From: Eledone cirrhosa | Lineage: Eukaryota | DNA length: 64,000 nt | Direction of reading: 5' to 3' | Assembly: GCA_964016885.1 (NCBI GenBank) | Contig: OZ024763.1 | Coordinates: 23,374,001-23,438,000 of the forward strand | Shown here: in pieces, positions 1,653 through 51,871 of the stretch | How positions within the stretch are numbered: position 1 is the stretch's first letter | Layout of the letters: each line of letters opens with the position of its first letter | Made by a program: the position numbers and the translations under genes | Notes under the pieces: model-generated | Told to the model about the DNA's origin: nothing | Seen by the model: only the letters and a program-made list of their open reading frames with translations | The model's database searches: none

Positions 1653-1654
1653 GT

Positions 1655-3773: not shown

Positions 3774-4736
3774 ATATTGAGCGAGATAAAGAAACTTTTC
3801 CCCAAAATTTGCTATAAGACCATAAAGAATGAGTGGCCAAAAGATGTATCTAATTGTTTTGATAATGAATGTAAGACATTGGTTGTAGCAGATGATTTCC
3901 AAAATGTATCGAAGGGAAATATCGAAGCAGATTTCAACAACTTCTATACAAATCTGCTTGTTTCTGACTACGTTAAACTCATAATGATTATCACTGGACC
4001 ATCAGAAAAGAAGCTTGATCTAGGAATCACACTTCACCTCAAACCACTCCAGGGGTTTGATTCCAACCAACTTTTCCAGCCATATTTACCTGAAAACTTA
4101 ACCTGTTCGGAAGATCTTGTCAATTTATGCTCCACGTTCTGCGACGATGTACCCGGAAGGATTGTGTCGTTGCGTAATAAACTGTTGCAGTGTCCTGCCA
4201 CTACCGACCCTAAAGAGATTTGTGAATTTCTATCGTCCATTTCAGACATCAATAGCTTTCTGCCTGAAAAATTTGCTGAGTCTTTTAAGCAATACCTCAA
4301 ACAGTTTTCCACAGAACAGCAAGAAACCCTTGCTAAACTGAGTTACTTTCCTGGTCAGTTCAGCCTCCATGATATGACAGCTTTGACAAATAATAAAGGA
4401 GGGGAACTGCAGACTAAATTCAATCTATTATATCCGTTAATGAACCAGGGCTTGATCAAGCCTATGGACCAAGCTAATACAGAGTTTGTGTTGCCACATG
4501 TCATACACCAATATTGCAGAAGCCACATGAAGCATGTCCTACATGAAGACAGTACCAAGTTGAAATTCAACCATATTATTGGAGAGGCTTTGATCGAGGC
4601 GGAGAGAATCAAAGAGAAGGGGTTACTCTACGATGTGACGGGAATATTTGAAAATAAGTGGCAGAGTTTCTCGCAGTTGATCAAGGAAGCCATTCACTCA
4701 GCTTCAGATGGAGAAAATTTTCAAATATATTGCAAG
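3774..4736 (+). CDS. Host gene exon a: C-terminal half of an NB-ARC/STAND-like NTPase plus winged-helix domain (gene 5'-incomplete)
   Basis: Acceptor ttcttcag|ATA and donor AAG|gtaggt; 963 nt, phase 0-0. Motifs occur in NB-ARC order: TLVVADD (Walker B), LIMIITG (sensor-1-like), LKPLQGFDSNQLF, FCDDVPGRI (GLPL position), LSYFPGQF, LMNQGLI..FVLPHVIHQY (MHD position). Confidence 0.85.
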
Positions 4737-5175
4737 GTAGGTTGCTATGTCTGTGTGTGTCTACATGTGTATGTGTGTGTGTGGGTATGTACCTGTGTGT
4801 GTGTGTGTGTATGTACCTGTGTGTGTGTGTGTGTATGTACCTGTGTGTGTGTGTAGGTATGTACATGTGTTTGTGTTTGTTGGTGTCTTTGTAGGTATGT
4901 ACGTGTGTGTGTAGATATTTATGGGACAAAACCGCCTAACCCATGCTAGCGTGGAAGATGGATGTTAAACATTGATGATGATGACATATATAAATACATA
5001 TATATATATATAGGAAGGGCATCCAGCCATAGGAAACCTGCCAGAGACACCTCCGTACGAGCGAGACATGATCACCCGACCAATCTTGTCTCAATTGGAA
5101 CAAAACCGTCTAACCCATGCTAGCATGGAAGATGGACATTAAACGTTGATGATGATGATGATATCTCAGTATCTT

Positions 5176-7319: not shown

Positions 7320-7419
7320 TTCTTCTTTCCAATTACTTCTGTTTCCCACTCCTTCTTTTGAATTCCTCCAGATTACCAACTTCTCTTGCATTCCTATGTT
7401 TCCTTCTCTTTCTTCTTCT

Positions 7420-7700: not shown

Positions 7701-8010
7701 CCCTGGGCCCTCCAAAGCATAAGTACTCCCAGGCCCCACAAAGGTCTAAATCAACCCTCCACACTCTAGCAACTTCAACTCAAATGTCAGAGTAGCTGTC
7801 AATTGTTGTTGTTGTTGCTACTGCCATCATCATCATCATCTTCCTATTACAGGTGGCAGTGGAAGCTCGTGACATCATAAGTTTGTTGCTGTTGTTACTA
7901 CTGCCATGAACCACCATCAACACTACCATCCACCACCACCACCACTACCATCCACCACCACCACCACTACCATCACCACCATCATCATCCTCGTTATCTT
8001 CTTATTTCAG

Positions 8011-8167
8011 GTAGCCGTAGAAGCTCGTGACATCATAACAACCTGTTTCCCTAAAGCTGCTAAAGAATTCTTCAAGTCCATTCTTGATGCCTCCAAGAGA
8101 CTTGGTACTGAACAACAGAAGGCTCTGCTCATGGTTTCCTATGGAAAATTCCTATCAGAAAACAACG
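8011..8167 (+). CDS. Host gene exon b
   Basis: Acceptor tatttcag|GTA and donor AACG|gtaaaa; 157 nt, phase 0-1; encodes VAVEARDIITTCFP..YGKFLSENN. Confidence 0.8.
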
Positions 8168-9673: not shown

Positions 9674-9704
<31 letters not shown>

Positions 9705-10505: not shown

Positions 10506-10653
10506 ACAGCCTCGCTATCAAGGAATCGCAGTGGCACCTGAAATCTGCTTTGGAAGTCCTTGAGGATCATGGGTGTTATTACCAGTGTTTGTGGATCTAC
10601 AACTATATGAGTTTGAACTACTACAGGCAGGGCAAACTGAAGAAGGGCATCAG
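10506..10653 (+). CDS. Host gene exon c (TPR-like helices)
   Basis: Acceptor ttttcacag|AC and donor CAG|gtaagc; 148 nt, phase 1-2; encodes DSLAIKESQWHLKSALEVLEDHGCYYQCLWIYNYMSLNYYRQGKLKKGI. Confidence 0.85.
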
Positions 10654-10829: not shown

Positions 10830-13800
10830 AATAATGATGAAATTATTGTGTACAGTGCTCAGGTGCACTACAACTCATCAAAGGTGCATGTATAGTACAT
10901 AGAATAATGTTCAAATGTCAGTAAAGTAAATCGTGTACGAGTCATGATATACACGTGTGTGTGTGTGTGGAGGGGGAATATTAGGTGTAGTGTTGGTGAA
11001 TCTCAGGAAGCATGGAGGTTTTAAAGAATGCAGTGTCAACAGCTAACAACTGATGCAGGTAGTTTGTTCCATGGAGGTTTTAAAGAATGCAGTGTCTCGA
11101 CCGCTAACAACTGATGCAGGTAGTTTGTTCCATGGAGGTTTTAAAGGATGCAGTGTCTCGACAGCTAACAACTGATGCAGGTAGTTTGTTCCATGGAGAT
11201 TTTAAAGGATGCAGTGTCTCGACTGCTAATAACTGATGCAGGGAGTTTGTTCCATGGAGGTTTTAAAGGATGCAGTGTCTCGACAGCTAACAACTGATGC
11301 AGGTAGTTTGTTCCATGAAGGTTTTAAAGGATGCAGTGTCTCGACTGCTAATAACTGATGCAGGGAGTTTGTTCCATGGAGGTTTTAAAGAATGCAGTGT
11401 CTCGACCGCTAACAACTGATGCAGGTAGTTTGTTCCATGGAGGTTTTAAAGAATGCAGTGTCTCGACAGCTAACAACTGATGCAGGTAGTTTGTTCCATG
11501 GAGATTTTAAAGGATGCAGTGTCTCGACTGCTAATAACTGATGCAGGGAGTTTGTTCCATGGAGGTTTTAAAGGATGCAGTGTCTCGACAGCTAACAACT
11601 GATGCAGGTAGTTTGTTCCATGAAGGTTTTAAAGGATGCAGTGTCTCGACTGCTAATAACTGATGCAGGGAGTTTGTTCCATGGAGGTTTTAAAGGATGC
11701 AGTGTCTCGACTGCTAATAACTGATGCAGGGAGTTTGTTCCATGGAGGTTTTAAAGGATGCAGTGTCTCGACTGCTAATAACTGATGCAGGGAGTTTGTT
11801 CCATGGAGGTTTTAAAGGATGCAGTGTCTCGACTGCTAATAACTGATGCAGGGAGTTTGTTCCATGGAGGTTTTAAAGGATGCAGTGTCTCGACTACTAA
11901 TAACTGATGCAGGGAGTTTGTTCCATGGAGGTTTTAAAGAATGCAGTGTCTCGACCGCTAACAACTGATGTAGGTAATTTGTTCCATGGAGATTTTAAAG
12001 ATGCAGTGTCTCGACTGCTAATAACTGATGCAGGGAGTTTGTTCCATGGAGGTTTTAAAGGATGCAGTGTCTCGACAGCTAACAACTGATGCAGGTAGTT
12101 TGTTCCATGGAGGTTTTAAAGGATGCAGTGTCTCGACAGCTAACAACTGATGCAGGTAGTTTGTTCCATGGAGGTTTTAAAGGATGCAGTGTCTCAAAAG
12201 CTAACAACTGGTGCAGGGAGTTTGTTCCATGGAGGTTTTAAAGGATGCAGTGTCTTGACAGCTAACAACTAATGCAGGTAGTTTGTTCCATGGAGGTTTT
12301 AAAGGTTGCAGTGTCTCGACAGCTAACAACTGATGCAGGTAGTTTGTTCCATGGAAGTTTTAAAGGATGCAGTGTCTCGACAGCTAACAACTGATGCAGG
12401 TAGTTTGTTCCATAGAGGTTTTAAAGGATGCAGTGTCTCGACAGCTAACAACTGATGTAGGTAGTTTGTTCCATGGAGGTTTTAAAGGATGCAGTGTCTC
12501 GACAGCTAACAACTGATGTAGGTAGTTTGTTCCATGGAGGTTTTAAAGGATGCAGTGTCTTGACAGCTAACAACTAATGCAGGTAGTTTGTTCCATGGAG
12601 GTTTTAAAGGTTGCAGTGTCTCAACAGCTAACAACTGATGCACGTAGTTTGTTCCATGGAGGTTTTAAAGGATGCAGTGTCTCAACAGCTAACAACTGAT
12701 GTAGGTAATTTGTTCCATGGAGGTTTTAAAGGATGCAGTGTCTCGACAGCTAACAACTGATGCAGGTAGTTTGTTCCATGGAGGTTTTAAAGGATGCAGT
12801 GTCTCAACAGCTAACAACTGATGCAGGGAGTTTGTTCCATGGAGGTTTTAAAGGATGCAGTGTCTCGACAGCTAACAACTGATGCAGGTAGTTTGTCCCA
12901 TGGAGGTTTTGAAGAATGCAGTGTCTCGACCGCTAACAACTGATGTAGGTAATTTGTTCCATGGAGATTTTAAAGGATGCAGTGTCTTGACAGCTAACAA
13001 CTAATGCAGGTAGTTTGTTCCATGGAGGTTTTAAAGGTTGCAGTGTCTCAACAGCTAACAACTGATGCAGGTAGTTTGTTCCATGGAGGTTTTAAAGGTT
13101 GCAGTGTCTCAACAGCTAACAACTGATGCAGGTAGTTTGTTCCATGGAGGTTTTAAAGGATGCAGTGTCCCGACAGCTAACAACTAATGCAGGTAGTTTG
13201 TTCCATGGAGGTTTTAAAGGTTGCAGTGTCTCGACAGCTAACAACTGATGCAGGTAGTTTGTTCCATGGAAGTTTTAAAGGATGCAGTGTCTCGACAGCT
13301 AACAACTGATGCAGGTAGTTTGTTCCATAGAGGTTTTAAAGGATGCAGTGTCTCGACAGCTAACAACTGATGTAGGTAGTTTGTTCCATGGAGGTTTTAA
13401 AGGATGCAGTGTCTCGACAGCTAACAACTGATGTAGGTAGTTTGTTCCATGGAGGTTTTAAAGGATGCAGTGTCTTGACAGCTAACAACTAATGCAGGTA
13501 GTTTGTTCCATGGAGGTTTTAAAGGTTGCAGTGTCTCAACAGCTAACAACTGATGCACGTAGTTTGTTCCATGGAGGTTTTAAAGGATGCAGTGTCTCAA
13601 CAGCTAACAACTGATGTAGGTAATTTGTTCCATGGAGGTTTTAAAGGATGCAGTGTCTCGACAGCTAACAACTGATGCAGGTAGTTTGTTCCATGGAGGT
13701 TTTAAAGGATGCAGTGTCTCAACAGCTAACAACTGATGCAGGGAGTTTGTTCCATGGAGGTTTTAAAGGATGCAGTGTCTCGACAGCTAACAACTGATGC

Positions 13801-16702
13801 AGGTAGTTTGTCCCATGGAGGTTTTGAAGAATGCAGTGTCTCGACCGCTAACAACTGATGTAGGTAATTTGTTCCATGGAGATTTTAAAGGATGCAGTGT
13901 CTTGACAGCTAACAACTAATGCAGGTAGTTTGTTCCATGGAGGTTTTAAAGGTTGCAGTGTCTCAACAGCTAACAACTGATGCAGGTAGTTTGTTCCATG
14001 GAGGTTTTAAAGGTTGCAGTGTCTCAACAGCTAACAACTGATGCAGGTAGTTTGTTCCATGGAGGTTTTAAAGGATGCAGTGTCCCGACAGCTAAAAACT
14101 GATGTAGGTAGTTTGTTCCATGGAGGTTTTAAAGGATGCAGTGTCTCAACAGCTAACAACTGATGTAGGTAATTTGTTCCATGGAGGTTTTAAAGGATGC
14201 AGTGTCTCGACAGCTAACAACTGATGCAGGTAGTTTGTTCCATGGAGGTTTTAAAGGATGCAGTGTCTCAACAGCTAACAACTGATGCAGGGAGTTTGTT
14301 CCATGGAGGTTTTAAAGGATGCAGTGTCTCGACAGCTAACAACTGATGCAGGTAGTTTGTTCCATGGAGGTTTTGAAGAATGCAGTGTCTCGACCGCTAA
14401 CAACTGATGTAGGTAATTTGTTCCATGGAGATTTTAAAGGATGCAGTGTCTCGACTGCTAATAACTGATGCAGGGAGTTTGTTCCATGGAGGTTTTAAAG
14501 GATGCAGTGTCTCGACAGCTAACAACTGATGCAGGTAGTTTATTCCATGGAGGTTTTAAAGGATGCAGTGTCTCGACAGCTAACAACTGATGCAGGTAGT
14601 TTGTTCCATGGAGGTTTTAAAGGATGCAGTGTCTCAAAAGCTAACAACTGATGTAGGTAGTTTGTTCCATGGATGTTTTAAAGGATGCAGTGTCTCGACA
14701 GCTAACAACTGATGCAGGTAGTTTGTTCCATGGAGGTTTTAAAGGATGCAGTGTCTTGACAGCTAACAACTAATGCAGGTAGTTTGTTCCATGGAGGTTT
14801 TAAAGGTTGCAGTGTCTCAACAGCTAACAACTGATGCACGTAGTTTGTTCCGTGGAGGTTTTAAAGGATGCAGTGTCTCGACAGCTAACAACTGATGCAG
14901 GTAGTTTGTTCCATGGAGGTTTTAAAGGATGCAGTGTCTTGACAGCTAACAACTAATGCAGGTAGTTTGTTCCATGGAGGTTTTAAAGGTTGCAGTGTCT
15001 CAACAGCTAACAACTGATGCACGTAGTTTGTTCCGTGGAGGTTTTAAAGGATGCAGTGTCTCGACAGCTAACAACTGATGCAGGTAGTTTGTTCCATGGA
15101 GGTTTTAAAGGATGCAGTGTCTTGACAGCTAACAACTAATGCAGGTAGTTTGTTCCATGGAGGTTTTAAAGGTTGCAGTGTCTCAATAGCTAACAACTGA
15201 TGCAGGTAGTTTGTTCCATGGAGGTTTTAAAGGATGCAGTGTCCCGACAGCTAACAACTGATGTAGGTAGTTTGTTCCATGGAGGTTTTAAAGGATGCAG
15301 TGTCTCAACAGCTAACAACTGATGCAGGTAGTTTGTTCCATGGAGGTTTTAAAGGATGCAGTGTCTCGACAGCTAATAACTGATGCAGGTAGTTTGTTCC
15401 ATGGAGGTTTTAAAGGATGCAGTGACTCAACAGCTAACAACTGATGCAGGTAGTTTGTTCCATGGAGGTTTTAAAGGATGCAGTGTCTCAACAGCTAATA
15501 ACTGATGCAGGTAGTTTGTTCCATGGAGGTTTTAAAGGATGCAGTGTCTCAACAGCTAACAACTGATGCAGGGAGTTTGTTCCATGGAGGTTTTAAAGGA
15601 TGCAGTGTCTCGACAGCTAACAACTGATGCAGGTAGTTTGTTCCATGGAGGTTTTGAAGAATGCAGTGTCTCGACCGCTAACAACTGATGTAGGTAATTT
15701 GTTCCATGGAGATTTTAAAGGATGCAGTGTCTCGACTGCTAATAACTGATGCAGGGAGTTTGTTCCATGGAGGTTTTAAAGGATGCAGTGTCTCGACAGC
15801 TAACAACTGATGCAGGTAGTTTGTTCCATGGAGGTTTTAAAGGATGCAGTGTCTTGACAGCTAACAACTAATGCAGGTAGTTTGTTCCATGGAGGTTTTA
15901 AAGGTTGCAGTGTCTCAACAACTAACAACTGATGCACGTAGTTTGTTCCGTGGAGGTTTTAAAGGATGCAGTGTCTCAACAGCTAACAACTGATGTAGGT
16001 AATTTGTTCCATGGAGGTTTTAAAGGATGCAGTGTCTCGACAGCTAACAACTGATGCAGGTAGTTTGTTCCATGGAGGTTTTAAAGGATGCAGTGTCTCA
16101 ACAGCTAACAACTGATGTAGGTAGTTTGTTCCATGGAGGTTTTAAAGGATGCAGTGTCTCGACAGCTAACAACTGATGCAGGTAGTTTGTTCCATGGAGG
16201 TTTTAAAGGATGCAGTGTCTTGACAGCTAACAACTGATGCAGGTAGTTTGTTCCATGGAGGTTTTAAAGGATGCAGTGTCCCGACAGCTAACAACTGATG
16301 TAGGTAGTTTGTTCCATGGAGGTTTTAAAGGTTGCAGTGTCTCAACAGCTAACAACTGATGCAGGTAGTTTGTTCCATGGAGGTTTTAAAGGATGCAGTG
16401 ACTCAACAGCTAACAACTGATGCAGGTAGTTTGTTCCATGGAGGTTTTAAAGGATGCAGTGTCTCAACAGCTAATAACTGATGCAGGTAGTTTGTTCCAT
16501 GGAGGTTTTAAAGGATGCAGTGTCTTGACAGCTAACAACTGATGTAGGTAGTTTGTTCCATGCTTTAGCAACTCTCAGCATGAAAAAATGCTTCCAAAAG
16601 TCATGGGAGCTGTACTGTTTTCTGACTTTGTAGGCATGTCCACAGGTGTTAGACACATGGAAATCAAAAAGGTGCTCAGTGTTGTTGGAAAGACGGTTAA
16701 TA
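10830..16702 (-). mobile_element. 5'-truncated CR1-clade LINE 3' end containing the 61-bp satellite
   Basis: Minus strand encodes GHAYKVRKQYSSHDFWKHFFMLRVAKAWNKLPTSVVSCQDTASFK, matching the CR1-type ORF2 C-terminus (RGH..K...FF..RV...WN.LP..VV.....FK). The 3' UTR is shared with the copy at 18095. Confidence 0.75.
11011..16562. repeat. 61-bp satellite, ~91 copies
   Basis: Unit CATGGAGGTTTTAAAGGATGCAGTGTCTCGACAGCTAACAACTGATGCAGGTAGTTTGTTC. Confidence 0.97.
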
Positions 16703-16738: not shown

Positions 16739-16848
16739 GTCTGCAGAGAAAGCTCTAGAAACAAATGTGTTTGATAGAAATACAGCTGATGTTGAACATG
16801 CGAAGACCTATTCCTATACATATCTCACACATAATCTTATCTTTGACG
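16739..16848 (+). CDS. Host gene exon d
   Basis: Long poly-T tract then gaag|GTC, and donor GACG|gtcagt; 110 nt, phase 2-1; encodes RSAEKALETNVFDRNTADVEHAKTYSYTYLTHNLIFD. Confidence 0.8.
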
Positions 16849-17939: not shown

Positions 17940-18053
17940 GTGACCATTCAAGAGCAGAATCAATTCTGCATACAACACTGTCCAGAGTTGAAGAATCTGG
18001 ACATCCGACTATTGGCTATATGCTTAATAACCTCGGACTTAATATTGAACGGA
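17940..18053 (+). CDS. Host gene exon e (TPR)
   Basis: Acceptor ttttttcag|GT and donor CGGA|gtaaga; 114 nt, phase 1-1; GDHSRAESILHTTLSRVEESGHPTIGYMLNNLGL contains the HP....LNNLG signature of kinesin-light-chain-type TPRs. Confidence 0.85.
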
Positions 18054-27454: not shown

Positions 27455-27475
27455 GTTGGTTAAAAGAGGAAGGAC

Positions 27476-34163: not shown

Positions 34164-34184
34164 GTTGGTTAAAAGAGGAAGGAC

Positions 34185-37116: not shown

Positions 37117-37260
37117 GGGGTGGTTCACCAGAGTTGGCGTTGAAGTACTATCTATCTTCGTTGTGTCGGAAAAGAACTGTAGCCTGTATCCATGAACACA
37201 TCTTGGTACCAACGTTGTGTAATGTCGCTGGTCAGTTTTCCAAGCACAAGCTTCGACACG
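37117..37260 (+). CDS. Host gene exon f (TPR)
   Basis: Branch point TACTAAC near 37102, acceptor ttctag|GG and donor CACG|gtaagg; 144 nt, phase 1-1; encodes RGGSPELALKYYLSSLCRKRTVACIHEHILVPTLCNVAGQFSKHKLRH. Confidence 0.85.
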
Positions 37261-37805: not shown

Positions 37806-37917
37806 ATTTGGCCTTAAAGTTCTTGTGGGAAGCTAAAGAGATACGGAAGCGCTGTGGCTGGGTGCATTCCTACACTGCACTGGTTCTGTGGAACATTGGA
37901 ATGGTTACCATGAGAAT
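37806..37917 (+). CDS. Host gene exon g (TPR)
   Basis: Acceptor ctccag|AT and donor AAT|gtaaga; 112 nt, phase 1-2; encodes DLALKFLWEAKEIRKRCGWVHSYTALVLWNIGMVTMR. Confidence 0.85.
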
Positions 37918-39600: not shown

Positions 39601-39614
39601 GCTTTATACATGTT

Positions 39615-40062: not shown

Positions 40063-40324
40063 GGGTTGCCCTGCGAAAGCCCTTCCCGATCTCTGCGAAG
40101 CTGTCACAATGTACAACCGGGTGAATCCTAAACACTATGTTAATGCCGAGGTAAGGATCTGGTTGGCACACTGTGCCCATGTGGTGGGGGACACTGCAAG
40201 AATGCAGGGGCTTCTATTAGAAGTCTTGGAAAACAAGGATGACTTTATGCAGTTGCGACCCCTCAGTGAAGCAGTCAGCTGCATTTTGGAGCACTTCGTC
40301 AGATTCAGTACGGAAAACCCTGTG
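40063..40324 (+). CDS. Host gene exon h (TPR-like/helical)
   Basis: Acceptor attgtag|G and donor GTG|gtaagc; 262 nt, phase 2-0; encodes MGCPAKALPDLCEAVTMYNRVNPKH..RFSTENPV. A competing in-frame donor exists after 40150. Confidence 0.75.
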
Positions 40325-40878: not shown

Positions 40879-40939
40879 TATTCTATTATATATATTTCAA
40901 GGGTACCAAAACATTGGTACGCTTTCATCAGATAAAATA
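40879..40939 (-). ncRNA. Minimal type I hammerhead ribozyme motif
   Basis: Minus strand reads TATTTTAT-CTGATGA-AAGCGTACCAA-TGTT-TTGGTACCCTT-GAAAT-ATAT-ATA-ATAGAATA. Confidence 0.72.
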
Positions 40940-41708: not shown

Positions 41709-41775
41709 TATTTTATCTGATGAGGACGTACTGTTGAAGTTAACTCAGAACCTCTGAAATATGTATAATAAAATA
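41709..41775 (+). ncRNA. Hammerhead ribozyme motif with degenerate stem II
   Basis: TATTTTAT-CTGATGA-[32 nt]-GAAAT-ATGT-ATA-ATAAAATA; the 8-bp stem I is perfect. Confidence 0.55.
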
Positions 41776-41908
41776 TACTTGATCACAAGAATATCTATTT
41801 TGTTAATATTTTGAATTAATATTAATAACTCTGGAAAACCATTGCTGTTGAGTACTTCCAATCTATTGTAAAACTCATTCTTTGATGTATTCATTGAACC
41901 TTGTTTAA

Positions 41909-41947
<39 letters not shown>

Positions 41948-42032
41948 TTTCTTTAAAACCAATTGTAAGTACAAGACAGTTTAGAATAAAAAAAAAATAT
42001 TTTAGTACTGAGTTTTCATGCAATGTAAGCCC

Positions 42033-43360
42033 TTAACCCTTTAGTATTTACATTACCTTATAATAATTGTTTCTACTTTTGGCACAAGGCCAGCAATTAC
42101 CCAGTGAATCACTGGTACTTTATTTTATCGACCCTATAAGGATGAAAGGTAAAGTTAACCTCGGCAGGATTTGAACTCAGAATGGCAAGGGTCGTAACTC
42201 TATGCGTCAAAGCATGACGTCCGACCGTCTACCGATACTGCCAATCCACCAGCCCCTTTAATAATATTACCTTATCATAATATCTCACATAACATTTACA
42301 TTACTCTATATATACTATTGTACTTTCACAGTAAAGGCTTTACCTCACATAATATCTCACATAACATTTACATTACTCTATATATACTATTGTATTTTCA
42401 CAGTAAAGGCTTTACCTCACATAATATCTCACATAACATTTACATTACTCTATATATACTATTGTATTTTCACAGTAAAGGCTTTACCTCACATAATATC
42501 TCAAATAACATTTACATTACTCTATATATACTATTGTATTTTCACAGTAAAGGCTTTACTTCACATAATATCTCACATAACATTTACATTACTCTATATA
42601 TACTATTGTACTTTCACAGTAAAGGCTTTACCTCACATAATATCTCACATAACATTTACATTACTCTATATATACTATTGTATTTTCACAGTAAAGGCTT
42701 TACTTCACATAATATCTCACATAACATTTACATTACTCTATATATACTATTATATTTTCACAGTAAAGGCTTTACCTCACATAATATCTCACATAACATT
42801 TACATTACTCTATATATACTATTGTATTTTCACAGTAAAGGCTTTACCTCACATAATATCTCACATAACATTTACATTACTCTATATATACTATTGTATT
42901 TTCACAGTAAACGCTTTACCTCACATAATATCTCACATAACATTTACATTACTCTATATATACTATTATATTTTCACAGTAAAGGCTTTACCTCACATAA
43001 TATCTCACATAACATTTACATTACTCTATATATACTATTGTATTTTCGCAGTAAAGGCTTTACCTCACATAATATCTCACATAACATTTACATTACCCTA
43101 TATATACTATTGTACTTTCACAGTAAACGCTTTACCTCACATAATATCTCAAATAACATTTACATTACTCTCTATATACTATTGTATTTTCACGGTAAAG
43201 TCTTTATCTCACATTATATTGAGTCCATGAAATGTTGATACTATTTATTGTGAGAACAATACCTTAATGTCAGCATGAGTGGCCAGTTACAGCCAGTTTG
43301 AACAGATAGAGGTGAGAGAATTCTGGCCGGATACGTCTGGTTTAAATGCTAAAGGGTTAA
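42033..43360. mobile_element. TTAA MITE copy E with ~13 units of the 72-bp repeat and a nested SINE
   Basis: TTAA-CCCTTTAGTATTTA ... TAAATGCTAAAGGG-TTAA; the SINE at 42061-42252 is flanked by ATTACCTTAT direct repeats. Confidence 0.9.
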
Positions 43361-43454
43361 GATACTTTGAGTAATTTAATCTGGCCTAACCTATTCGTTG
43401 ACATCATCATCATCATCATCATGTCTCAGTATATAATGTATATATATATCATCT

Positions 43455-44180
43455 CATTTTACATTCGCTTTTCCCTGCTTGCAAGGGTGGGACAGGTCCT
43501 ATTCAGCACAGCATCTCTCTACTTGTCACGGTCCTTCATCATCTTCTCCGTGAGCCTCAGTGATCTGAGGTCTGCTCTCACCACCTCCACCTATGTTTTT
43601 CGTGGTCTTCCTCTACTGCGTCTTCCTCTATTGGGATTTCTTGGCACTTCTTCACCCAGCGGTCATCCTCCATGCGCATCACATGTCCATACCAACGCAG
43701 TCTTCTCTCCCACACACCACAACTTATCCCTCTTACACACAGTTTCTTTCTCAACACATCCATGCTCGGTTGTTCACGTACATTGACATTGCACATCCAA
43801 CGGAGCATACTTGCTTCATTTTTATCCAGCCGTCGCATATCCTGTGCAGTTGCTGGCCATGTCTCATTTCGCACATCTCACACAGGCATCATATAACCGT
43901 CCTTTCGTACACAGGGAGAAACCCTTCTTTGTCAACAGAAGAAGCAGCTCCCTAAATATCTTCCAACTCGACCTTATTCTGGATACTATGGCCTCGGAAC
44001 ATCCTCCTCCCTTGCTAATCTGATCACCTAGGTACCGGAAGCTATCAACCACTCCTATAGAACCCACCTGCATTTGAAAAATGTGTCTATCACTGCGATT
44101 ACTACTATCACATTTCCCTGTACATCTACTGCATACGTAGTTTTCCCTACCTGTTAGTTACCTGCTATCCCACTACATCT
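43455..44180 (-). mobile_element. Degenerate RTE LINE 3' fragment (diverged subfamily)
   Basis: Frameshifted peptides VDSFRYLGDQISKGGGCSEAI and NEASMLRWMCNV..ERRLRWYGHVMRM are homologous to ORF 56847-59966. Confidence 0.88.
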
Positions 44181-44730
44181 CTAATAAAAGATACTTGCTC
44201 ACTGATTCATATTTGAAGAGTTCTACTATGTATATGCAAACCTGCCAACCTTTAAAAACGCAAACGGGGAGTACAATGAAAAAAAGTGCCCCAGAATGGG
44301 GAGAAATGAGGCAAAATTGGGGAGATTTTACATAATGAAAGCTATATCTGAGAAGACATCACTCACCCGACCGAAAGTGGCTGAGAGATGTCCCCGTCAG
44401 ATTCGGAGGTCTGTATATGTCTTAAGTCTAAAGTCTGTCTTTAGCCATTTAAGCTTCATTCGTCCAGTGCTTATCCCAGTTTCATGACGTGAAGCGACTG
44501 AGAGTACAAGGCTTCTCCTGGACAGGACACCAGTCCATCACAGGGTTGAAGTCTATATCAAGCCAGAAGTTCTCGTCAGGCCATTGCTTATCCTGGTTTC
44601 ATGGTGTGAAGTGACTGAGAGTACAAGACTTACCCTGGACAGGACGCCAGTCGATCAGTTACATTTCCAGCTAATGCTGGTAGTCATTTTCAGCTGAGTA
44701 TACTGGAGCAGTGTATTAATGAAGTGTTTT

Positions 44731-45364
44731 AATGAGGGATCAGATGTTTACTCGAGAGAAGACTACGTTGGTACGGTCACGTGATGCGCATGAAAGACGA
44801 CAGCTGTATAAAAAAGTGCAGGGCAATAAAAATAGACGGTAGCCACGGAGTAGGCAGACCCAGAAAAACCTGGGACAACTTAATAAATTCCGACCTCACA
44901 CACTTACACCTCTCCAAGACAATGTCACTAGACCGAGATCTTTGGCGCTACACAGTAATACAGAAGACCCGCCTTGCCTAAGTACAAAGCGAAACCTACA
45001 GTCAGTAGGCACCTCTTAACAAAAATACACCCCCGTCCCACTACCCCCACCCCATCCACACCACCCCTTTCAATGTAATGTTATGTTGGTACCACAACAT
45101 CCAGTCCGAAACAAATGAGGTCGTGTAGGTGTCACGACAAAAAAAACACACAGTCCACGCTGTAATGTGGCCGTGTAGGTAACACGGTAAAAACCTCCCA
45201 GCCCCACTGTAAATGTGGTTGGTGTTAGGAAGGGCATCCAACCGTAGAAAACCCACCAGACAGTCCTATGCGAGCAGGACAACCACTCTTGCCTCAAGTG
45301 GGAAAACTCCCGTCCAAACCCATGCAAGCGTGGAAGATGGACGTTAAATGATGATGATGATGAT
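44731..45364 (+). mobile_element. 5'-truncated RTE inserted into a minus-strand SINE (44430-45462)
   Basis: Encodes MRMKDDSCIKKCRAIKIDG and ends in a (GAT)n tail; the SINE motif GAAGTGTTT|TGCTCAAG is split across it. Confidence 0.88.
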
Positions 45365-45519
45365 GTTTTGCTCAAGAACACATCAAACCCAGTCTAGGAA
45401 TCAAACCTGTGACATTATGATGGGAAGCCGAACGCCCCTTACCACTAGGCCATATGCCTCCTCCACATACCATGTATATGTGGTGTGGTAAATAAATATA
45501 TATATCAGGACTGAACCAC

Positions 45520-46415
45520 CAGCATCACCATCAGCAACATCATCATCATCACCACCAGCCGCATCACCTTCAGCAGCACCACTATAACCATGCTCACCAC
45601 TATCACCACCAGCAGCAGCACCACTATAACCATGCTCACCACTATCACCACCAGCAGCAGCATCGCTATAACCATGGTCACCACCATCACCACCAGCAGC
45701 AGCATCGCTATAACCATGGTCACCACCATCACCACCAGCAGCAGCATCGCTATAACCATGCTCACCACCATCACCACCAGCAGCATCGCTATAACCATGC
45801 TCACCACCATCACCACCAACAGCAGTATCGCTATAACCATGCTCACCACCATCACCACCAACAGCAGTATCGCTATAACCATGCTCACCACCATCACCAC
45901 CAGCAGCATCGCTATAACCATGGTCACCACCATCACCACCAACAGCAGTATCGCTATAACCATGCTCACCACCATCACCACCAGCAGCATCGCTATAACC
46001 ATGCTCACCACCATCACCACCAGCAGCATCGCTATAACCATGGTCACCACCATCATTAGCGGCATCAGCAACAGGAGTATCACCACTGCCATCACCACCA
46101 CTACAGCAATCATCACCACTACCACCACCCTTACCAACATCACAGCCATCATCACCACCACCACACCACACCATCACACCACACCACCACTGCAGCCATC
46201 ATCACCACCACCCTTACCACCACCCTTACCACCACAACCACCACCACCATCATCCACCCTCACCACCATCATCCCCCCTCACCACCACCACCACTACCAC
46301 CCTTACCACCACTACAGATCACCACCACCACTATCACCTCCACCACCCTTAGCACGACTACAGCCACCACCACCACAACCACCACTACTACAACCATCAT
46401 CACCATCATCATCAG
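45520..46415. repeat. 39/42-bp minisatellite grading into (CAC/CAT)n microsatellite
   Basis: Unit GCTATAACCATGCTCACCACCATCACCACCAGCAGCATC, ~12 copies. Confidence 0.9.
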
Positions 46416-46501
46416 TATTGCTTTAAAAATAAAATAATAATTTGAACTAACAGCCAAAAAAAACAAAAAACATATATATATCTTTTATTTATTTTACCCA
46501 G

Positions 46502-49500
46502 AAACGCCTTCACTATTTGACACTTCTTATCTCTGAACTAAAGAGGTTGAGCGCCCATCCGTTGGTCTCCAGTGAAAAGCAGGACAGTTACAAACAGTTC
46601 TGTGATTGGTATGGAAAAGTGATGAATAATCTGGAAAGAAACTCCTTGTCTAAGGTTCATCTCCTGGAACTTCCCTTCACCTGTCTTCCATGTCGAGAAA
46701 TCGTCAAGTTTAAAATATGTGACGAAGATATCTATGTCAAAAGTCTCTGCAACATTTATTCCCAGAGAGTTTCTAGACAGCATGCGATTTTGTTTGACTC
46801 TGTTTCTCAGAAAGTTTACGAAGAGCAGGCCACACAGCTACAACATGGGTTACCTCCCCTTGCTGCTCCTTTTTCCGAGAGAGTTTGCAAAGAGCAGGAA
46901 ATTCAGCTACAGCATGGATTACCTCCCCCTCGGTGTGTTTCCGAGAGAGTTTACAAAGACCAGGCAATGCAGCTACATCATAAGTTATCTCCCCCTGCTT
47001 CTGTTTCCGAGAGAGTTTACAAAGGACAGGAAATTCAGCTACAACATGGATTACCTCCCTCTCGTGTTTCCGAGAGAGTTTACCAAGAGCAGGCCATACA
47101 GTTACATGAGTTATCTCCCCCTGCTTCTACTTCTCAGAGATTTTACAGAGACCAGGCAATGCAGCTACATGGTTTATCTTCTGTTTACCAAGAGCAAGCC
47201 ACACTGCTACAACATGGATTACCTCCCCCTGCCGCTCCTGTTTCCGAGGGAATTTACAAAGAACAGGAAATTCAGCTACAACATGGGTTATCTCCCTTTG
47301 CTGCTCCTGTTTTCGAGAGAGTTTACAAAGAGCAGACAACACATGGGTTATCTCCCCCTGCTTCTGTTTCTCAGAGAGTTTACTACAAAGAAGAGGAAAT
47401 TCAGCTACAACATGGATTACCTCCCTCTCATGTTTCCGAGAGAGTTTACCAAGAGCAGGCCATACAGTTACAACATGAGTTATCTCCCCCTGCTTCTACT
47501 TCTCAGAGATTTTACAGAGACCAGGCAATGCAGCTACATGGGTTATCTTCTCCTGTTTCCCAGAAAGTTTACCAAGAGCAAGCCACACTGCTACAACATG
47601 GGTTACCTCCTGCTGCCGCTCCTGTTTCAGAGAGATTTTACAAAGACCAGGCAATGCAGCTACATGAGTTATCTTCTCCTGTTTCTGAGAAAGTTCACCA
47701 AGAGCAGGAAATGCTGTTACCACATGGCTTACTTCCCTCTGCTTCTGTTTCCGAGAGAGTTTACAAAGGAGAGGAAATTCAGCTACAACATGGATTACCT
47801 CCCTCTCGTGTTTCCGAGAGAGTTTACCAAGAGCAGGCCATACAGTTACAACATGAGTTATCTCCCCCTGCTTCTACTTCTCAGAGATTTTACAGAGACC
47901 AGGCAATGCAGCTACATGGTTTATCTTCTGTTTACCAAGAGCAAGCCACACTGCTACAACATGGCTTACCTCCCCCTGCCGCTCCTGTTTCCGAGGGAAT
48001 TTACAAAGACCAGGCAATGCAGCTACATGTGTTATCTTCTCCTGTTTCTGAGAAAGTTCACCAAGAGCAGGAAATGCTGTTACCACATGGCTTACTTCCC
48101 TCTGCTGTTTCCGAGAGAGTTTACAAAGGACAGGAAATTCACCTACAACATGGATTACCTCCCTCTCGTGTTTCCGAGAGAGTTTACCAAGAGCAGGCCA
48201 TACAGTTACAACATGAGTTATCTCCCCCTGCTTCTACTTCTCAGAAATTTTACAGAGACCAGGCAATGCAGCTACATGGTTTATCTTCTCCTGTTTCCCA
48301 GAAAGTTTACCAAGAGCAAGCCACACTGCTACAACATGGGTTACCTCCCGCTTCCGCTCCTGTTTCCGAGGGAATTTACAAAGACCAGGCAATGCAGCTA
48401 CATGTGTTATCTTCTCCTGTTTCTGAGAAAGTTCACCAAGAGCAGGAAATGCTGTTACCACATGGCTTACTTCCCTCTGCTTCTGTTTCCGAGAGAGTTT
48501 ACAAAGGACAGGAAATTCAGCTACAACATGGATTACCTCCCTCTCGTGTTTCCGAGAGAGTTTACCAAGAGCAGGCCATACAGTTACATCAGTTATCTCC
48601 CCCTGCTTCTACTTCTCAGAGATTTTACAGAGACCAGGCAATGCAGCTACATGGGTTATCTTCTCCTGTTTCCCAGAAAGTTTACCAAGAGCAAGCCACA
48701 CTGCTACAACATGGGTTACCTCCTGCTGCCGCTCCTGTTTCAGAGAGATTTTACAAAGACCAGGCAATGCAGCTACATGAGTTATCTTCTCCTGTTTCTG
48801 AGAAAGTTCACCAAGAGCAGGAAATGCTGTTACCACATGGCTTACTTCCCTCTGCTTCTGTTTCCGAGAGAGTTTACAAAGGAGAGGAAATTCAGCTACA
48901 ACATGGATTACCTCCCTCTCGTGTTTCCGAGAGAGTTTACCAAGAGCAGGCCATACAGTTACAACATGAGTTATCTCCCCCTGCTTCTACTTCTCAGAGA
49001 TTTTACAGAGACCAGGCAATGCAGCTACATGGTTTATCTTCTGTTTACCAAGAGCAAGCCACACTGCTACAACATGGCTTACCTCCCCCTGCCGCTCCTG
49101 TTTCCGAGGGAATTTACAAAGACCAGGCAATGCAGCTACATGTGTTATCTTCTCCTGTTTCTGAGAAAGTTCACCAAGAGCAGGAAATGCTGTTACCACA
49201 TGGCTTACTTCCCTCTGCTGTTTCCGAGAGAGTTTACAAAGGACAGGAAATTCACCTACAACATGGATTACCTCCCTCTCGTGTTTCCGAGAGAGTTTAC
49301 CAAGAGCAGGCCATACAGTTACAACATGAGTTATCTCCCCCTGCTTCTACTTCTCAGAAATTTTACAGAGACCAGGCAATGCAGCTACATGGTTTATCTT
49401 CTCCTGTTTCCCAGAAAGTTTACCAAGAGCAAGCCACACTGCTACAACATGGGTTACCTCCCGCTTCCGCTCCTGTTTCCGAGGGAATTTACAAAGACCA

Positions 49501-51871
49501 GGCAATGCAGCTACATGTGTTATCTTCTCCTGTTTCTGAGAAAGTTCACCAAGAGCAGGAAATGCTGTTACCACATGGCTTACTTCCCTCTGCTTCTGTT
49601 TCCGAGAGAGTTTACAAAGGACAGGAAATTCAGCTACAACATGGATTACCTCCCTCTCGTGTTTCCGAGAGAGTTTACCAAGAGCAGGCCATACAGTTAC
49701 ATCAGTTATCTCCCCCTGCTTCTACTTCTCAGAGATTTTACAGAGACCAGGCAATGCAGCTACATGGGTTATCTTCTCCTGTTTCCCAGAAAGTTTACCA
49801 AGAGCAAGCCACACTGCTACAACATGGGTTACCTCCTGCTGCCGCTCCTGTTTCAGAGAGATTTTACAAAGACCAGGCAATGCAGCTACATGAGTTATCT
49901 TCTCCTGTTTCTGAGAAAGTTCACCAAGAGCAGGAAATTCTGTTACCACATGGCTTACTTCCCTCTGCTTCTGTTTCCGAGAGAGTTTACAAAGGACAGG
50001 AAATTCAGCTACAACATGGATTACCTCCCTCTCGTGTTTCCGAGAGAGTTTACCAAGAGCAGGCCATACAGTTACAACATGAGTTATCTCCCCCTGCTTC
50101 TACTTCTCAGAGATTTTACAGAGACCAGGCAATGCAGCTACATGGTTTATCTTCTGTTTACCAAGAGCAAGCCACACTGCTACAACATGGGTTACCTCCC
50201 CCTGCCGCTCCTGTTTCCGAGGGAATTTACAAAGACCAGGCAATGCAGCTACATGTGTTATCTTCTCCTGTTTCTGAGAAAGTTCACCAAGAGCAGGAAA
50301 TGCTGTTACCACATGGCTTACTTCCCTCTGCTGTTTCCGAGAGAGTTTACAAAGGACAGGAAATTCACCTACAACATGGATTACCTCCCTCTCGTGTTTC
50401 CGAGAGAGTTTACCAAGAGCAGGCCATACAGTTACAACATGAGTTATCTCCCCCTGCTTCTACTTCTCAGAAATTTTACAGAGACCAGGCAATGCAGCTA
50501 CATGGGTTATCTTCTCCTGTTTCCCAGAAAGTTTACCAAGAGCAAGCCACACTGCTACAACATGGGTTACCTCCCGCTTCCGCTCCTGTTTCCGAGGGAA
50601 TTTACAAAGACCAGGCAATGCAGCTACATGTGTTATCTTCTCCTGTTTCTGAGAAAGTTCACCAAGAGCAGGAAATGCTGTTACCACATGGCTTACTTCC
50701 CTCTGCTTCTGTTTCCGAGAGAGTTTACAAAGGACAGGAAATTCAGCTACAACATGGATTACCTCCCTCTCGTGTTTCCGAGAGAGTTTACCAAGAGCAG
50801 GCCATACAGTTGCAACATGGGTTACTTCCTTCTCGTGTTCCTGAGAAAGTTTACCAAGAACAGGAAATGCAACTACATCATAACTTACCTCCTGTTTCCG
50901 AGAGAAGGGCAATGCAGGCAAAACATAAGTTATCTTCCCCTGTTCCTCCTTCTCAGAGACTTTTCAAAGAACAGGCAATGCAGCTACAATATGGGTTATC
51001 TTCTGTTTCCCAGAAAGTTGACAATGAACAGGCCATACAGTTACAACATGAGTTATATCCCCCTGCTTCTGTTTCTCAGCGAGTTTACAATGAACAGGCA
51101 ATGCAGTTACAACATGGGTTATCTCCCTTTTCCGCTCCTGTTCCTGAGAGAGTTTACAAAGTGCAGGCAATGCAGACAAAACATGGGTTACCTCCCCCTG
51201 ATTCTCCTGTTTCTCACAGAGAGGCAATGCAATTCCGCCATGGATTATCTCCTTCTGTCTACCATAAATTTCAGTCTCAATGTCTTCCGGCTAACATCAG
51301 CTACATGAATGATGATTTCACAAACATTGCTTCCAATGTTTCCATAGGACATGAGTTGTCTCTACCCAATATCTCACTCTTGAAAAATGATGTCAATGTT
51401 GGGAGTTTTTCTAAAAGTAAAAGTGAAGCCGGAATGAATTCTAACGTGCAACCATTTAGTAATTTTGAGGAAACAAAAATGGAAAAATATGTACTAGTTC
51501 CCAATTTTGATAAAGACAAAATTCTTCCAACAAACGAAAATCTAAAGAATTCAGACATCGTGCCTTTTCCATCCACACTAAACGATAAATCTGACTATTC
51601 TAACTTCTATCCCACTGCCTGCAAAACCCCCAAAAGTGATCATATAATGTCTTTTACCAGCCTTGAGAAAAAACCCATTGCTGGATTTGGTGCTTTGCAT
51701 GAAGGGGAAGTCCCTAGTTTTTCGTTTCCTGAAGTGTCTGATCAATATTCCTTAGAGGCTCTTTTAGCATTGTCTTGTTCAGGTCAATACTCTGGAGATT
51801 TCCAAACAGATGAAAGACGTTCTGGAGAGTTCCAGTCACTCAGGGGACAACCGATTGAACATAATGATTGA
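46502..51871 (+). CDS. Host gene terminal exon i: ~100 aa unique, ~1490 aa tandem repeat, ~200 aa tail
   Basis: Acceptor ttttacccag|AAA in phase 0, in frame with ORF 46517-51871; encodes KRLHYLTLLISELKRL...; stop TGA; AATAAA at 51961 and ~53030-53046. Confidence 0.8.
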   Translation, partial: KRLHYLTLLISELKRLSAHPLVSSEKQDSYKQFCDWYGKVMNNLERNSLSKVHLLELPFTCLPCREIVKFKICDEDIYVKSLCNIYSQRVSRQHAILFDSVSQKVYEEQATQLQHGLPPLAAPFSERVCKEQEIQLQHGLPPPRCVSERVYKDQAMQLHHKLSPPASVSERVYKGQEIQLQHGLPPSRVSERVYQEQAIQLHELSPPASTSQRFYRDQAMQLHGLSSVYQEQATLLQHGLPPPAAPVSEGIYKEQEIQLQHGLSPFAAPVFERVYKEQTTHGLSPPASVSQRVYYKEEEIQLQHGLPPSHVSERVYQEQAIQLQHELSPPASTSQRFYRDQAMQLHGLSSPVSQKVYQEQATLLQHGLPPAAAPVSERFYKDQAMQLHELSSPVSEKVHQEQEMLLPHGLLPSASVSERVYKGEEIQLQHGLPPSRVSERVYQEQAIQLQHELSPPASTSQRFYRDQAMQLHGLSSVYQEQATLLQHGLPPPAAPVSEGIYKDQAMQLHVLSSPVSEKVHQEQEMLLPHGLLPSAVSERVYKGQEIHLQHGLPPSRVSERVYQEQAIQLQHELSPPASTSQKFYRDQAMQLHGLSSPVSQKVYQEQATLLQHGLPPASAPVSEGIYKDQAMQLHVLSSPVSEKVHQEQEMLLPHGLLPSASVSERVYKGQEIQLQHGLPPSRVSERVYQEQAIQLHQLSPPASTSQRFYRDQAMQLHGLSSPVSQKVYQEQATLLQHGLPPAAAPVSERFYKDQAMQLHELSSPVSEKVHQEQEMLLPHGLLPSASVSERVYKGEEIQLQHGLPPSRVSERVYQEQAIQLQHELSPPASTSQRFYRDQAMQLHGLSSVYQEQATLLQHGLPPPAAPVSEGIYKDQAMQLHVLSSPVSEKVHQEQEMLLPHGLLPSAVSERVYKGQEIHLQHGLPPSRVSERVYQEQAIQLQHELSPPASTSQKFYRDQAMQLHGLSSPVSQKVYQEQATLLQHGLPPASAPVSEGIYKDQAMQLHVLSSPVSEKVHQEQEMLLPHGLLPSASVSERVYKGQEIQLQHGLPPSRVSERVYQEQAIQLHQLSPPASTSQRFYRDQAMQLHGLSSPVSQKVYQEQATLLQHGLPPAAAPVSERFYKDQAMQLHELSSPVSEKVHQEQEILLPHGLLPSASVSERVYKGQEIQLQHGLPPSRVSERVYQEQAIQLQHELSPPASTSQRFYRDQAMQLHGLSSVYQEQATLLQHGLPPPAAPVSEGIYKDQAMQLHVLSSPVSEKVHQEQEMLLPHGLLPSAVSERVYKGQEIHLQHGLPPSRVSERVYQEQAIQLQHELSPPASTSQKFYRDQAMQLHGLSSPVSQKVYQEQATLLQHGLPPASAPVSEGIYKDQAMQLHVLSSPVSEKVHQEQEMLLPHGLLPSASVSERVYKGQEIQLQHGLPPSRVSERVYQEQAIQLQHGLLPSRVPEKVYQEQEMQLHHNLPPVSERRAMQAKHKLSSPVPPSQRLFKEQAMQLQYGLSSVSQKVDNEQAIQLQHELYPPASVSQRVYNEQAMQLQHGLSPFSAPVPERVYKVQAMQTKHGLPPPDSPVSHREAMQFRHGLSPSVYHKFQSQCLPANISYMNDDFTNIASNVSIGHELSLPNISLLKNDVNVGSFSKSKSEAGMNSNVQPFSNFEETKMEKYVLVPNFDKDKILPTNENLKNSDIVPFPSTLNDKSDYSNFYPTACKTPKSDHIMSFTSLEKKPIAGFGALHEGEVPSFSFPEVSDQYSLEALLALSCSGQYSGDFQTDERRSGEFQSLRGQPIEHND
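46800..51260 (+). repeat. Coding tandem repeat: 19-23-aa units, 6-unit blocks (360-378 bp), 1113-bp higher-order repeat x~3
   Basis: Antisense ORF landmarks recur at exact 1113-bp offsets (47496/48609/49722; 47874/48987/50100; 48234/49347/50460). Confidence 0.95.

Follow-up and report, generated by a model that had tools for sequence, protein, structure and literature searches.

The locus analysed here raises the question of whether nine exons in a 64,000-nucleotide stretch of Eledone cirrhosa DNA (the window) encode one intracellular receptor and, if so, by which part of the protein it would signal. The locus is almost certainly a STAND-TPR gene. The preferred reading, to which a rough probability of 0.45 is given, is a sensor that would oligomerise and recruit TRAF6 towards NF-kB through its C-terminal tip, with a giant repeat as a tolerated spacer.

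Joining of the nine exons (window 3774-51871, + strand; Table 1) gave a single frame of 2,459 aa with one terminal stop. The canonical splice sites and matching phases claimed in the preliminary description were reproduced, with AG at 9/9 acceptors, GT at 8/8 donors and exon end phases of 0, 1, 2, 1, 1, 1, 2 and 0. The orthologue from Octopus sinensis (LOC115224678, XP_036369719.1; P0001 in the family numbering) matched all nine exons in order in tblastn (E 1e-11 to 1e-112), and in blastp 476 of 777 positions, spanning all eight junctions, were identical to the window model; therefore, the exon model is not due to chance. The h-i junction was included in the core match to the orthologues of both O. 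sinensis and Argonauta. Moreover, run X1, for which the library type is not on record, provided a single 2,660-nt contig, of which positions 128-1094 align to 3774-4740 without a mismatch; the four bases beyond 4736, GTAG, are common to the intron start and exon b. In runs X2-X4 no coverage of exon a was listed, but as a filter removes records from these tables the absence carries no weight. The length of the X1 contig is the sum of 127 nt, exons a-h and 523 nt of exon i; exactly at this point (window 47024, the first repeat branch) the spliced model first branches at k=31, whereas leaving out any single exon among b-h would give 2,398-2,550 nt. The junctions after exon a were therefore inferred from length and not read, and in this form the proposed test of spliced RNA linking the exons, especially 40324 to 46502, was passed.

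Table 1. Features of the gene and their positions in the window
Feature	Position	Strand
Exon a, 321 aa: NBD from after Walker A, helical domain 1, winged helix (~aa 165-257), arm start	3774..4736	+
Walker B, VVADD, both acids present	3882..3896	+
Sensor-1 strand IMIITGP, without arginine	3981..4001	+
GxP/GLPL-equivalent DVPGR: Asp for Gly, Pro kept	4146..4160	+
MHD-equivalent FVLPH: Pro in His column	4485..4499	+
Exon b, arm/TPR	8011..8167	+
Exon c, TPR	10506..10653	+
Exon d, TPR	16739..16848	+
Exon e, TPR	17940..18053	+
Exon f, TPR	37117..37260	+
Exon g, TPR	37806..37917	+
Exon h, TPR	40063..40324	+
Exon i, 1,789 aa + stop: helical solenoid end, CxxC cap, repeat, tail motifs	46502..51871	+
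CxxC (CLPC) of cap after TPRs; putative Zn site	46682..46693	+
In-frame tandem array, ~68 units	46802..51199	+
AGFGAL	51680..51697	+
PIEHND, terminal PxExxD, putative TRAF6-type motif	51851..51868	+

The predicted structure of exon a (AF2; pLDDT 81.9, pTM 0.78, with only pLDDT 38-67 in the first 50 residues) has NBD-HD1 fused to a winged helix and followed by the arm, the NBD being its least confident part. With this model each of the 32 Foldseek rows listed as far as rank 36 was a STAND/NLR chain (best NRC2, E 4.9e-4), at TM-scores of only 0.22-0.42. In VIA-align, where helical models can attain such Z through a common arrangement, it resembled the wheat G10 resistosome (Z 12.3, rmsd 5.4, 245 aligned), CED-4 (Z 12.0, rmsd 4.4, 241 aligned), MalT (Z 11.7, rmsd 2.5, 120 aligned) and PH0952 (Z 11.4, rmsd 3.1, 125 aligned), and its fold was also similar to that of APAF-1. 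The family profile matched AfsR (E 8e-17, positions 9-336) and Sr35 (E 2.5e-13). The winged helix claimed for exon a, for which a P-loop/WHD fold had been named as the test, agrees with these matches, so that this test was passed too, and an NB-ARC/AP-ATPase-type STAND fold is predicted.

Pfam gave no P-loop for exon a on its own, the Walker A pattern G-x4-GK[TS] is absent from the window in all six frames, and no exon for it was found within 1-3773. Walker A is intact in the O. sinensis orthologue (GQPSVGKT), and its Lys is present in 46/46 family rows with a residue at that column (7/53 being gapped). Of the upstream exons expected in the preliminary description, the one for Walker A is inferred, at 40 aa, from the orthologue together with the length of the contig, whereas an effector exon is unlikely: all four O. 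sinensis isoforms start two residues ahead of the NB domain, and the X1 contig has just 127 nt upstream of exon a, about 40 codons being required for the Walker A exon. Among family rows with a complete NB start, the NB lies within 60 aa of the start in 38/43, which leaves no room for an N-terminal effector, and within 37 aa in all ten other cephalopod-clade rows (P0001, P0007, P0008, P0187-P0193). A conventional tripartite receptor with its effector encoded upstream of the window would be compatible with the remaining 5/43 rows, which have >100 aa ahead of the NB, and with the fact that the 5' end of the gene is beyond the window and a contig start is not a transcript start; against the cephalopod starts and the short upstream sequence, it is very improbable. 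In MalT, too, the NOD comes first and the output is C-terminal.

GxP in HD1 is a motif of NB-ARC-type STAND NTPases, and sensor-1 Arg and MHD His are motifs of canonical switching NB-ARC proteins such as APAF-1 and plant NLRs. The Walker B of the window fits hhhhDD, with DN in the orthologues. The Pro of GxP is invariant (53/53 family rows), and its Gly, which is Asp in the window, is present in 11/12 other cephalopod rows and changed in 2/3 orthologues. Neither the MHD His nor the sensor-1 Arg is in its column in any of the 15 cephalopod-clade rows, so the protein falls outside the canonical switching NB-ARC, which has both; the His is retained in 9/16 sister-clade rows. The loss of these two residues suggests that nucleotide is bound with a weaker ADP clamp and is hydrolysed little, if at all. 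The changed MHD, sensor-1 and GxP columns also fit a dead scaffold. In a prediction of self-association, the NOD of the paralogue P0008 (18-345, three copies) scored 0.33 against 0.03 for the best control, with contact agreement of at least 68% and pLDDT of at least 73. The mark used was reached by 21/30 solved pairs and 0/23 single chains from microbes, and by 17/29 solved pairs (animals 7/16) and 0/30 single chains from eukaryotes; the prediction passes by a narrow margin and may reflect solved STAND rings that the predictor had memorised.

The claim that TPRs follow the STAND core was confirmed through the relatives. No single window exon alone gave a Pfam TPR match, but TPR_12 was found in the O. 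sinensis orthologue (E 2e-12), to which the window aligns at 61% over the TPR part. The orthologue-core structure, poor at pLDDT 50 (3-row alignment) and used for the TPR part only, has helical hairpins at 352-737 that match TPR folds, and these form a solenoid after the arm. A CxxC in the cap behind it recurs in the orthologues and in Octopus paralogues. The TPRs were closest to those of kinesin light chain and LGN/Pins, and ESM Atlas matches had a generic NTPase-TPR look only.

Over a core of 730-770 aa, identity to the window was 62% for O. sinensis and 54% for Argonauta hians (Ahia01_000496900), values not calibrated against other genes. The three sequences formed one clade (SH-aLRT 100, LG+G4 quick tree) with one copy per species, so the gene appears single-copy, which looks unlike a diversifying receptor; the sister clade is multiplied in Octopus. 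The search for orthologues in other molluscs that had been proposed gave relatives across Mollusca, and among 25 family members Pfam (E<=0.01) found NB-ARC in 11 and TPR_12 in 24. The protein is a member of a mollusc-wide, uncharacterised family of NB-ARC-type STAND-TPR proteins. Both orthologues are database-only 'uncharacterized' proteins, and no description of the family was found in the open-access papers searched (members may appear in tables in PMC10959488 and PMC9646362). Other relatives are labelled 'nephrocystin-3-like' or 'kinesin light chain'. Together with the TPR likeness, the degenerate MHD, sensor-1 and GxP columns and the single copy per species, these labels could point to a non-immune scaffold, i.e., a pseudo-ATPase STAND-TPR protein used like nephrocystin-3 or kinesin light chain, with TPRs binding a partner in trafficking or development. 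However, the labels derive solely from the TPR part, the Lys of Walker A does not vary among family members, the sister clade has multiplied and core identity among the orthologues is low by the uncalibrated figures above. Such a scaffold is therefore regarded as unlikely, and an intracellular (cytosolic) sensor as on balance probable.

The protein is neither an NLR (NACHT + LRR) nor APAF-1. NACHT and LRR were found neither among the Pfam matches listed for P0001 nor in the 25 most frequent families of the 25 members, and CARD and WD40 had no match in the O. sinensis orthologue, the window's own 5' end lying outside the window. The TPR-sensor STANDs PH0952, MalT and AfsR, described as an old and widespread design, have the order NBD-HD-WHD-arm-TPR in common with the window protein (PMC6468293); however, their effectors are folded DNA-binding domains, whereas no folded effector was found in the window protein and its tail is predicted to be disordered. 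APAF-1, CED-4 and Dark share the NB-ARC-type NOD fold, but the window protein has TPR instead of WD40, no MHD His and probably no CARD; Apaf-1 is given as not detected in molluscs in PMC10959488. As in the window protein, a STAND core is joined to a repeat sensor in animal NLRs and in molluscan and cnidarian NACHT- and NB-ARC-TPR proteins, with TPR variants reported from pearl oyster (NACHT) and corals. However, the window protein is of NB-ARC and not NACHT type, has no LRR, and probably lacks the N-terminal death-fold/HEPN effectors of those reports (PMC3879445, PMC9646362, PMC11359984).

Both orthologues have the same cap, AGFGAL and terminal PxExx[DE] as the window protein. AGFGAL is the only 6-mer common to the three tails, and any 6-mer was shared in 0/1,000 shuffles. 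PxExx[DE] occurs as PIEHND in the window and as PTEHED and PSEHEE in the other two, at -6, -17 and -8 from the end; its chance of occurring in the last 30 aa is about 2% each by shuffling, for a motif that is short and was noticed post hoc, in orthologues that are not independent. Over the whole window tail it is not enriched (1 seen against 1.86 expected), and among other tailed family members it occurs in only 5/22, never within the last 30 aa. The consensus PxExx(aromatic/acidic) in an unstructured tail, as given in PMC7733315, is present. In the account of ray-finned fish STING in the same source, PxExxD likewise stands at the extreme C-terminus of the unstructured tail of a clustering receptor, and TRAF6 recruitment requires motif clustering; STING is, however, an unrelated receptor, in which TRAF6 binding is known from a crystal structure, whereas in the window protein it is putative from the motif. 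TRAF6 is listed in the haemocyte transcriptome of O. vulgaris (PMC4199593).

A TRAF6 output is proposed tentatively, at less than even odds. Following STAND biology, binding of a ligand to the TPRs would open the predicted nucleotide-binding switch, and the protein would oligomerise; in the oligomer the conserved PxExxD motifs of the C-termini would come together and might then recruit TRAF6 towards NF-kB. TRAF6 as the partner, an immune role and the identity of the ligand are hypotheses only. Of the STAND/TPR sensor proposed in the preliminary description, the core and TPRs are thus borne out by fold and profile matches, and the sensor role is no more than likely. The same sensor could also have another output, with AGFGAL or the CxxC cap binding a different adaptor, or with the protein nucleating an effector-bearing STAND as in NAIP/NLRC4, and PxExxD would then be incidental. 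AGFGAL is invariant in 3/3 tails; in one family row (P0053) the NB is preceded by a death effector domain (E 1.4e-8), just under the cut-off (35.2 against 35.9 bits); and 11/12 cluster-type paralogues of Octopus and Argonauta, which end shortly after the cap, have no PxExx motif, which means that some family members must use another signalling route. On the other hand, PxExx[DE] keeps the C-terminal tip in an otherwise unalignable tail remodelled by separate repeat gains, and for the tailed gene another output is considered somewhat unlikely.

To our knowledge, described animal STAND receptors signal via folded N-terminal domains. If the TRAF6 reading is true, a mollusc-wide effector-less NB-ARC-TPR family with an octopod TRAF6-type tail motif would be a new output mode, and would offer concrete sensor candidates for cephalopods, in which little is known about sensing in the cytosol. 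If TRAF6 binding fails, the locus would be an ordinary, if unannotated, STAND-TPR gene that contains a coding minisatellite. A bolder and improbable extension is that molluscs, lacking Apaf-1, possess a so far unrecognised innate-immune system built on effector-less NB-ARC-TPR receptors, in which a multiplied set of octopod tail-less paralogues would be variable sensors and the single-copy tailed gene a co-oligomerising helper signalling via PxExxD and AGFGAL on a lineage-rebuilt repeat spacer, i.e., an animal NLR-like sensor/helper network with a STING-style tail replacing the death/TIR domain.

The repeat of ~1500 aa reported after the TPRs is present, as residues 771-2236 (some 1,466 aa, encoded at about 46800-51200 of the window), but it is not a module of the architecture, as the orthologues carry unrelated repeats elsewhere in the tail. 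Its units, mostly of 14-23 aa and Q/L/S/P/E-rich, form 6-unit blocks of ~375 nt, and a super-repeat of 1,113 nt occurs about three times. Each of the top 25 periods in the DNA autocorrelation is divisible by 3, and frame keeping is judged from these, since unit lengths cut from the translation are multiples of 3 by construction. Among units pN/pS was ~0.75. Pfam matches of exon i (DUF538, VCX_VCY) were rejected as composition artefacts (0 passing stretches). Dual coding in a second stop-free frame (46626-51305) was also rejected, because only 1/2,961 synonymous single main-frame changes would create a stop there. The orthologous arrays are shorter (about 420 and 250 aa), consist of other units (27/30 aa in O. 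sinensis, 32 aa in Argonauta) and lie after AGFGAL, whereas that of the window lies before it. Monomer profiles of each array detected no array in the other two orthologues, with matches only at the equivalent single position at non-significant E (0.16-2). This suggests that each array arose locally; judged by sequence, the giant repeat is a lineage-specific expansion absent from the orthologues.

The array length could be inflated by the assembly, or represent a long allele of a variable-number repeat, as a 1,349-nt stretch recurs 1,113 nt away with no mismatch. However, the third super-repeat copy differs at several sites, and with 30 distinct DNA units the array would still be long minus one 371-aa block, so that this is not a likely explanation. 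The repeat, of 1,470 aa in round terms, is quite probably mainly a spacer. Long repeats were gained by 3/3 orthologues, and this speaks for a long tail being favoured and not merely tolerated. From these separately gained Q/S/E/H/Y-rich arrays, and from the frame kept in 25/25 periods against off-frame units in 4/5 non-coding satellites, it could be proposed that the tail itself is the output, a multivalent low-complexity region condensing or acting as bait once the cores oligomerise, with composition and length mattering but not sequence. This appears doubtful, because units, lengths and positions differ, pN/pS is ~0.75, array length varies among O. sinensis isoform models (1,519-1,720 aa) and frame keeping is already accounted for by the downstream motifs. 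The three orthologues, with their three unrelated in-frame arrays set between fixed anchors, provide a clear example of one exon in which repeats were gained repeatedly. The satellites in the window are non-coding arrays of a 72-bp unit.

The gene is real. Nine exons (a-i) with canonical splice sites and matching phases had been proposed in the preliminary description, and they held at the positions implied, with AG/GT throughout and end phases of 0, 1, 2, 1, 1, 1, 2 and 0. When joined, they encoded 2,459 aa in one frame with a single stop at the end. The surroundings were repeat-rich animal DNA and the closest proteins were octopod. The O. sinensis orthologue (LOC115224678, P0001) matched all nine exons collinearly, with 476 of 777 identities in an alignment that reaches 95 residues into exon i, and the Argonauta orthologue (Ahia01_000496900, P0002) had 390 of 729; the 12 additional residues at the d-e junction of the O. 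sinensis model were absent from the window and Argonauta. Exon a was present in four public sequencing runs (library type on record for none). In run X1, one 2,660-nt contig matched 3774-4740 with 0 mismatches from contig position 128 and left 80 intron bases upstream of exon a without cover. By these bounds it enters at the acceptor and exits at the donor, the 4 surplus bases being common to intron and exon b. Read as a spliced chain, the contig would take in 523 nt of exon i and end at 47024, exactly the first branch point of a k=31 assembly graph built from the spliced model, which branches there because the 30-mer ending at this position reappears from 47768 onward. Omission of any single exon b-h predicted 2,398-2,550 nt. 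The length of this contig, whose sequence is known on exon a only, supports every junction including h-i and suggests that the run also contains repeat copies from further into the array. The start of exon b has a partial copy at 7853-7880, 158 nt before the true acceptor; this copy is preceded by a separate pyrimidine tract and AG and is a possible decoy splice site.

Features located in the window (exons from splice sites and joined frame)
Feature	Position	Strand	Remarks
Exon a	3774-4736	+
Exon b	8011-8167	+
Exon c	10506-10653	+
Exon d	16739-16848	+
Exon e	17940-18053	+
Exon f	37117-37260	+
Exon g	37806-37917	+
Exon h	40063-40324	+
Exon i	46502-51871	+
61-bp satellite	11011-16562		91 copies; intron c-d; 94-97% matches
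61-bp satellite	18465-19463		16 copies; intron e-f; 94-97% matches
Broken mariner-type transposase	20237-21168	-	intron e-f; Transposase_1, E 3e-22
Non-LTR retrotransposon	23780-29429	-	intron e-f; 99.6% identical to next
Non-LTR retrotransposon	30489-36129	-	intron e-f
RTE-like element	56844-59963	+	1,040-codon ORF; endonuclease, reverse transcriptase

An NB-ARC-like domain, winged helix and TPRs had also been described, and fold comparison bore this out. Exon a alone gave no P-loop match against Pfam, since Walker A lies outside the window; in the O. sinensis orthologue GQPSVGKT occupies residues 28-35 and the protein starts two residues ahead of the nucleotide-binding domain. With the exon a model (56 rows, pLDDT 81.9), Foldseek returned only STAND/NLR chains among the 32 rows listed, down to rank 36, and in VIA-align the wheat resistosome, CED-4, MalT, PH0952, NRC1 and APAF-1 scored best (Z 12.3-10.0), above plain winged-helix proteins (Z <=9.3). 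The family profile matched AfsR over its first 336 positions and Sr35 over its first 281. The order NBD-HD1-WHD-arm-TPR therefore follows from fold searches and profile matches, with a CxxC cap after the TPRs. In a 53-row alignment, the Walker A Lys was conserved in all 46 rows having a residue there. The columns that we take to be sensor-1 Arg and MHD His were altered in 15 of 15 cephalopod-clade rows, and the latter was retained in 9 of 16 sister-clade rows. The exon a model, which lacks the P-loop, superposed at an rmsd of about 4-7 on active resistosome and CED-4 chains versus 10-18 on resting NRC2/APAF-1, a weak sign of some interest next to the lost MHD His. This domain order is the design described for TPR-sensor STANDs (PMC6468293), and by predicted fold and order the protein is one. 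It is neither a bona fide NLR, which PMC3879445 defines by NACHT and LRR, nor APAF-1, which has CARD and WD40: none of these four domains was among the Pfam matches listed for the O. sinensis orthologue. Apaf-1 was reported as not detected in molluscs (PMC10959488).

The family, gathered by profile search of 1.84 billion proteins and look-ups of members, included limpets, abalones, Batillaria, Biomphalaria, Solemya, scallops, Mercenaria, Pinctada and octopods; of 20 members looked up, all 15 with a species name were molluscs. No description of it was found in the main texts of openly available papers. An unseen N-terminal effector is very unlikely: the nucleotide-binding domain begins <=60 residues from the start in 38 of 43 family rows, one exception having a death effector domain. 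Such effectors are reported for pearl oyster NACHT-TPR and coral NB-ARC/NACHT-TPR proteins (PMC9646362, PMC11359984). Database labels of family members read uncharacterised, nephrocystin-3-like or kinesin light chain. A non-immune scaffold is rather doubtful. The window protein and both orthologues formed one clade in a quick tree (SH-aLRT 100). A related clade was expanded in Octopus (P0187-P0207: O. sinensis LOC115223560, LOC115223561, LOC115223652, LOC115223659, LOC118767588 and relatives), with five O. sinensis loci apparently on one chromosome and eight O. vulgaris entries apparently together on another sequence, suggesting a tandem cluster. These Octopus/Argonauta paralogues are tail-less, ending soon after the cap (PxExx in 1 of 12), and are candidates for a diversifying sensor set.

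The repeat of ~1500 aa, previously regarded as an architectural module, did not prove to be one. It spans residues 771-2236 in about 68 units, mostly of 14-23 aa (30 distinct at the DNA level; nested periods of 375 and 1,113 nt), while the O. sinensis array has 27/30-aa and the Argonauta array 32-aa units. Monomer profiles run against the other two orthologues matched no other species' array, and the array precedes AGFGAL in the window and follows it in the other two. AGFGAL is the sole 6-mer common to the three tails (shuffles 0/1,000), and PxExx[DE] closes all three (PIEHND at the stop, PTEHED at -17, PSEHEE at -8). The giant repeat therefore appears to be recent local growth within a tail predicted to be disordered, of which the two short motifs are the fixed points. 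A perfect 1,349-nt duplication reflects either a recent last expansion or one block in assembly excess. That the array itself is a functional condensate or bait is improbable. Its frame is maintained (the 25 strongest periods are all divisible by 3; non-coding 72-bp arrays had off-frame units in 4 of 5), while its units are weakly constrained (pN/pS about 0.75; 68 non-independent pairs). A second stop-free frame over the array (46626-51305, +; 1,560 codons) was rejected as a by-product of main-frame codons. Two distant gastropod-clade proteins (P0021, P0043) have REPxExxE in their last 80 aa, which resembles the Argonauta motif and may be due to chance.

In STANDs, ligand on the TPRs relieves autoinhibition and the NOD oligomerises (PMC6468293), and by analogy the same could occur here. 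For paralogue P0008, a three-copy prediction of the NOD reached 0.33 versus 0.03 for the best control (contact agreement at least 68%, pLDDT at least 73), a marginal pass of a mark attained by 21/30 solved pairs and 0/23 single chains in microbes and 17/29 and 0/30 in eukaryotes; the predictor may simply have memorised solved rings. As no folded effector was found, output would have to pass through the tail or a partner. Fish STING recruits TRAF6 via PxExxD at its extreme C-terminus, for which motif clustering is required (PMC7733315), and O. vulgaris haemocytes express TRAF6 (PMC4199593). Based on these points, we favour, at a probability of roughly 45% for the chain as a whole, a sensor whose oligomer would cluster C-terminal PxExxD and signal through TRAF6 to NF-kB, the array serving as spacer. 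However, the motif is short, was noticed post hoc, is not enriched across the tail and is present in just 5 of the 22 other members that have a tail, and the switch motifs are degenerate. Output via another adaptor or a partner STAND is a less probable alternative, and a sensor/helper acting with TRAF6 is unlikely.

In both non-LTR elements ORF1 (621 and 618 codons between stops) and ORF2 (1,152 codons; endonuclease, RVT_1, zf-RVT) are open, and both elements abut a 72-bp satellite unit at the identical point. This points either to an L1/Tx1-like element that targets the satellite or to the element and satellite having been duplicated together in tandem. The RTE-like ORF has a PHD-finger match within its RT region (E 4e-6), and further arrays of 20, 44, 48, 72, 102 and 392 bp occupy introns and the 3' flank.
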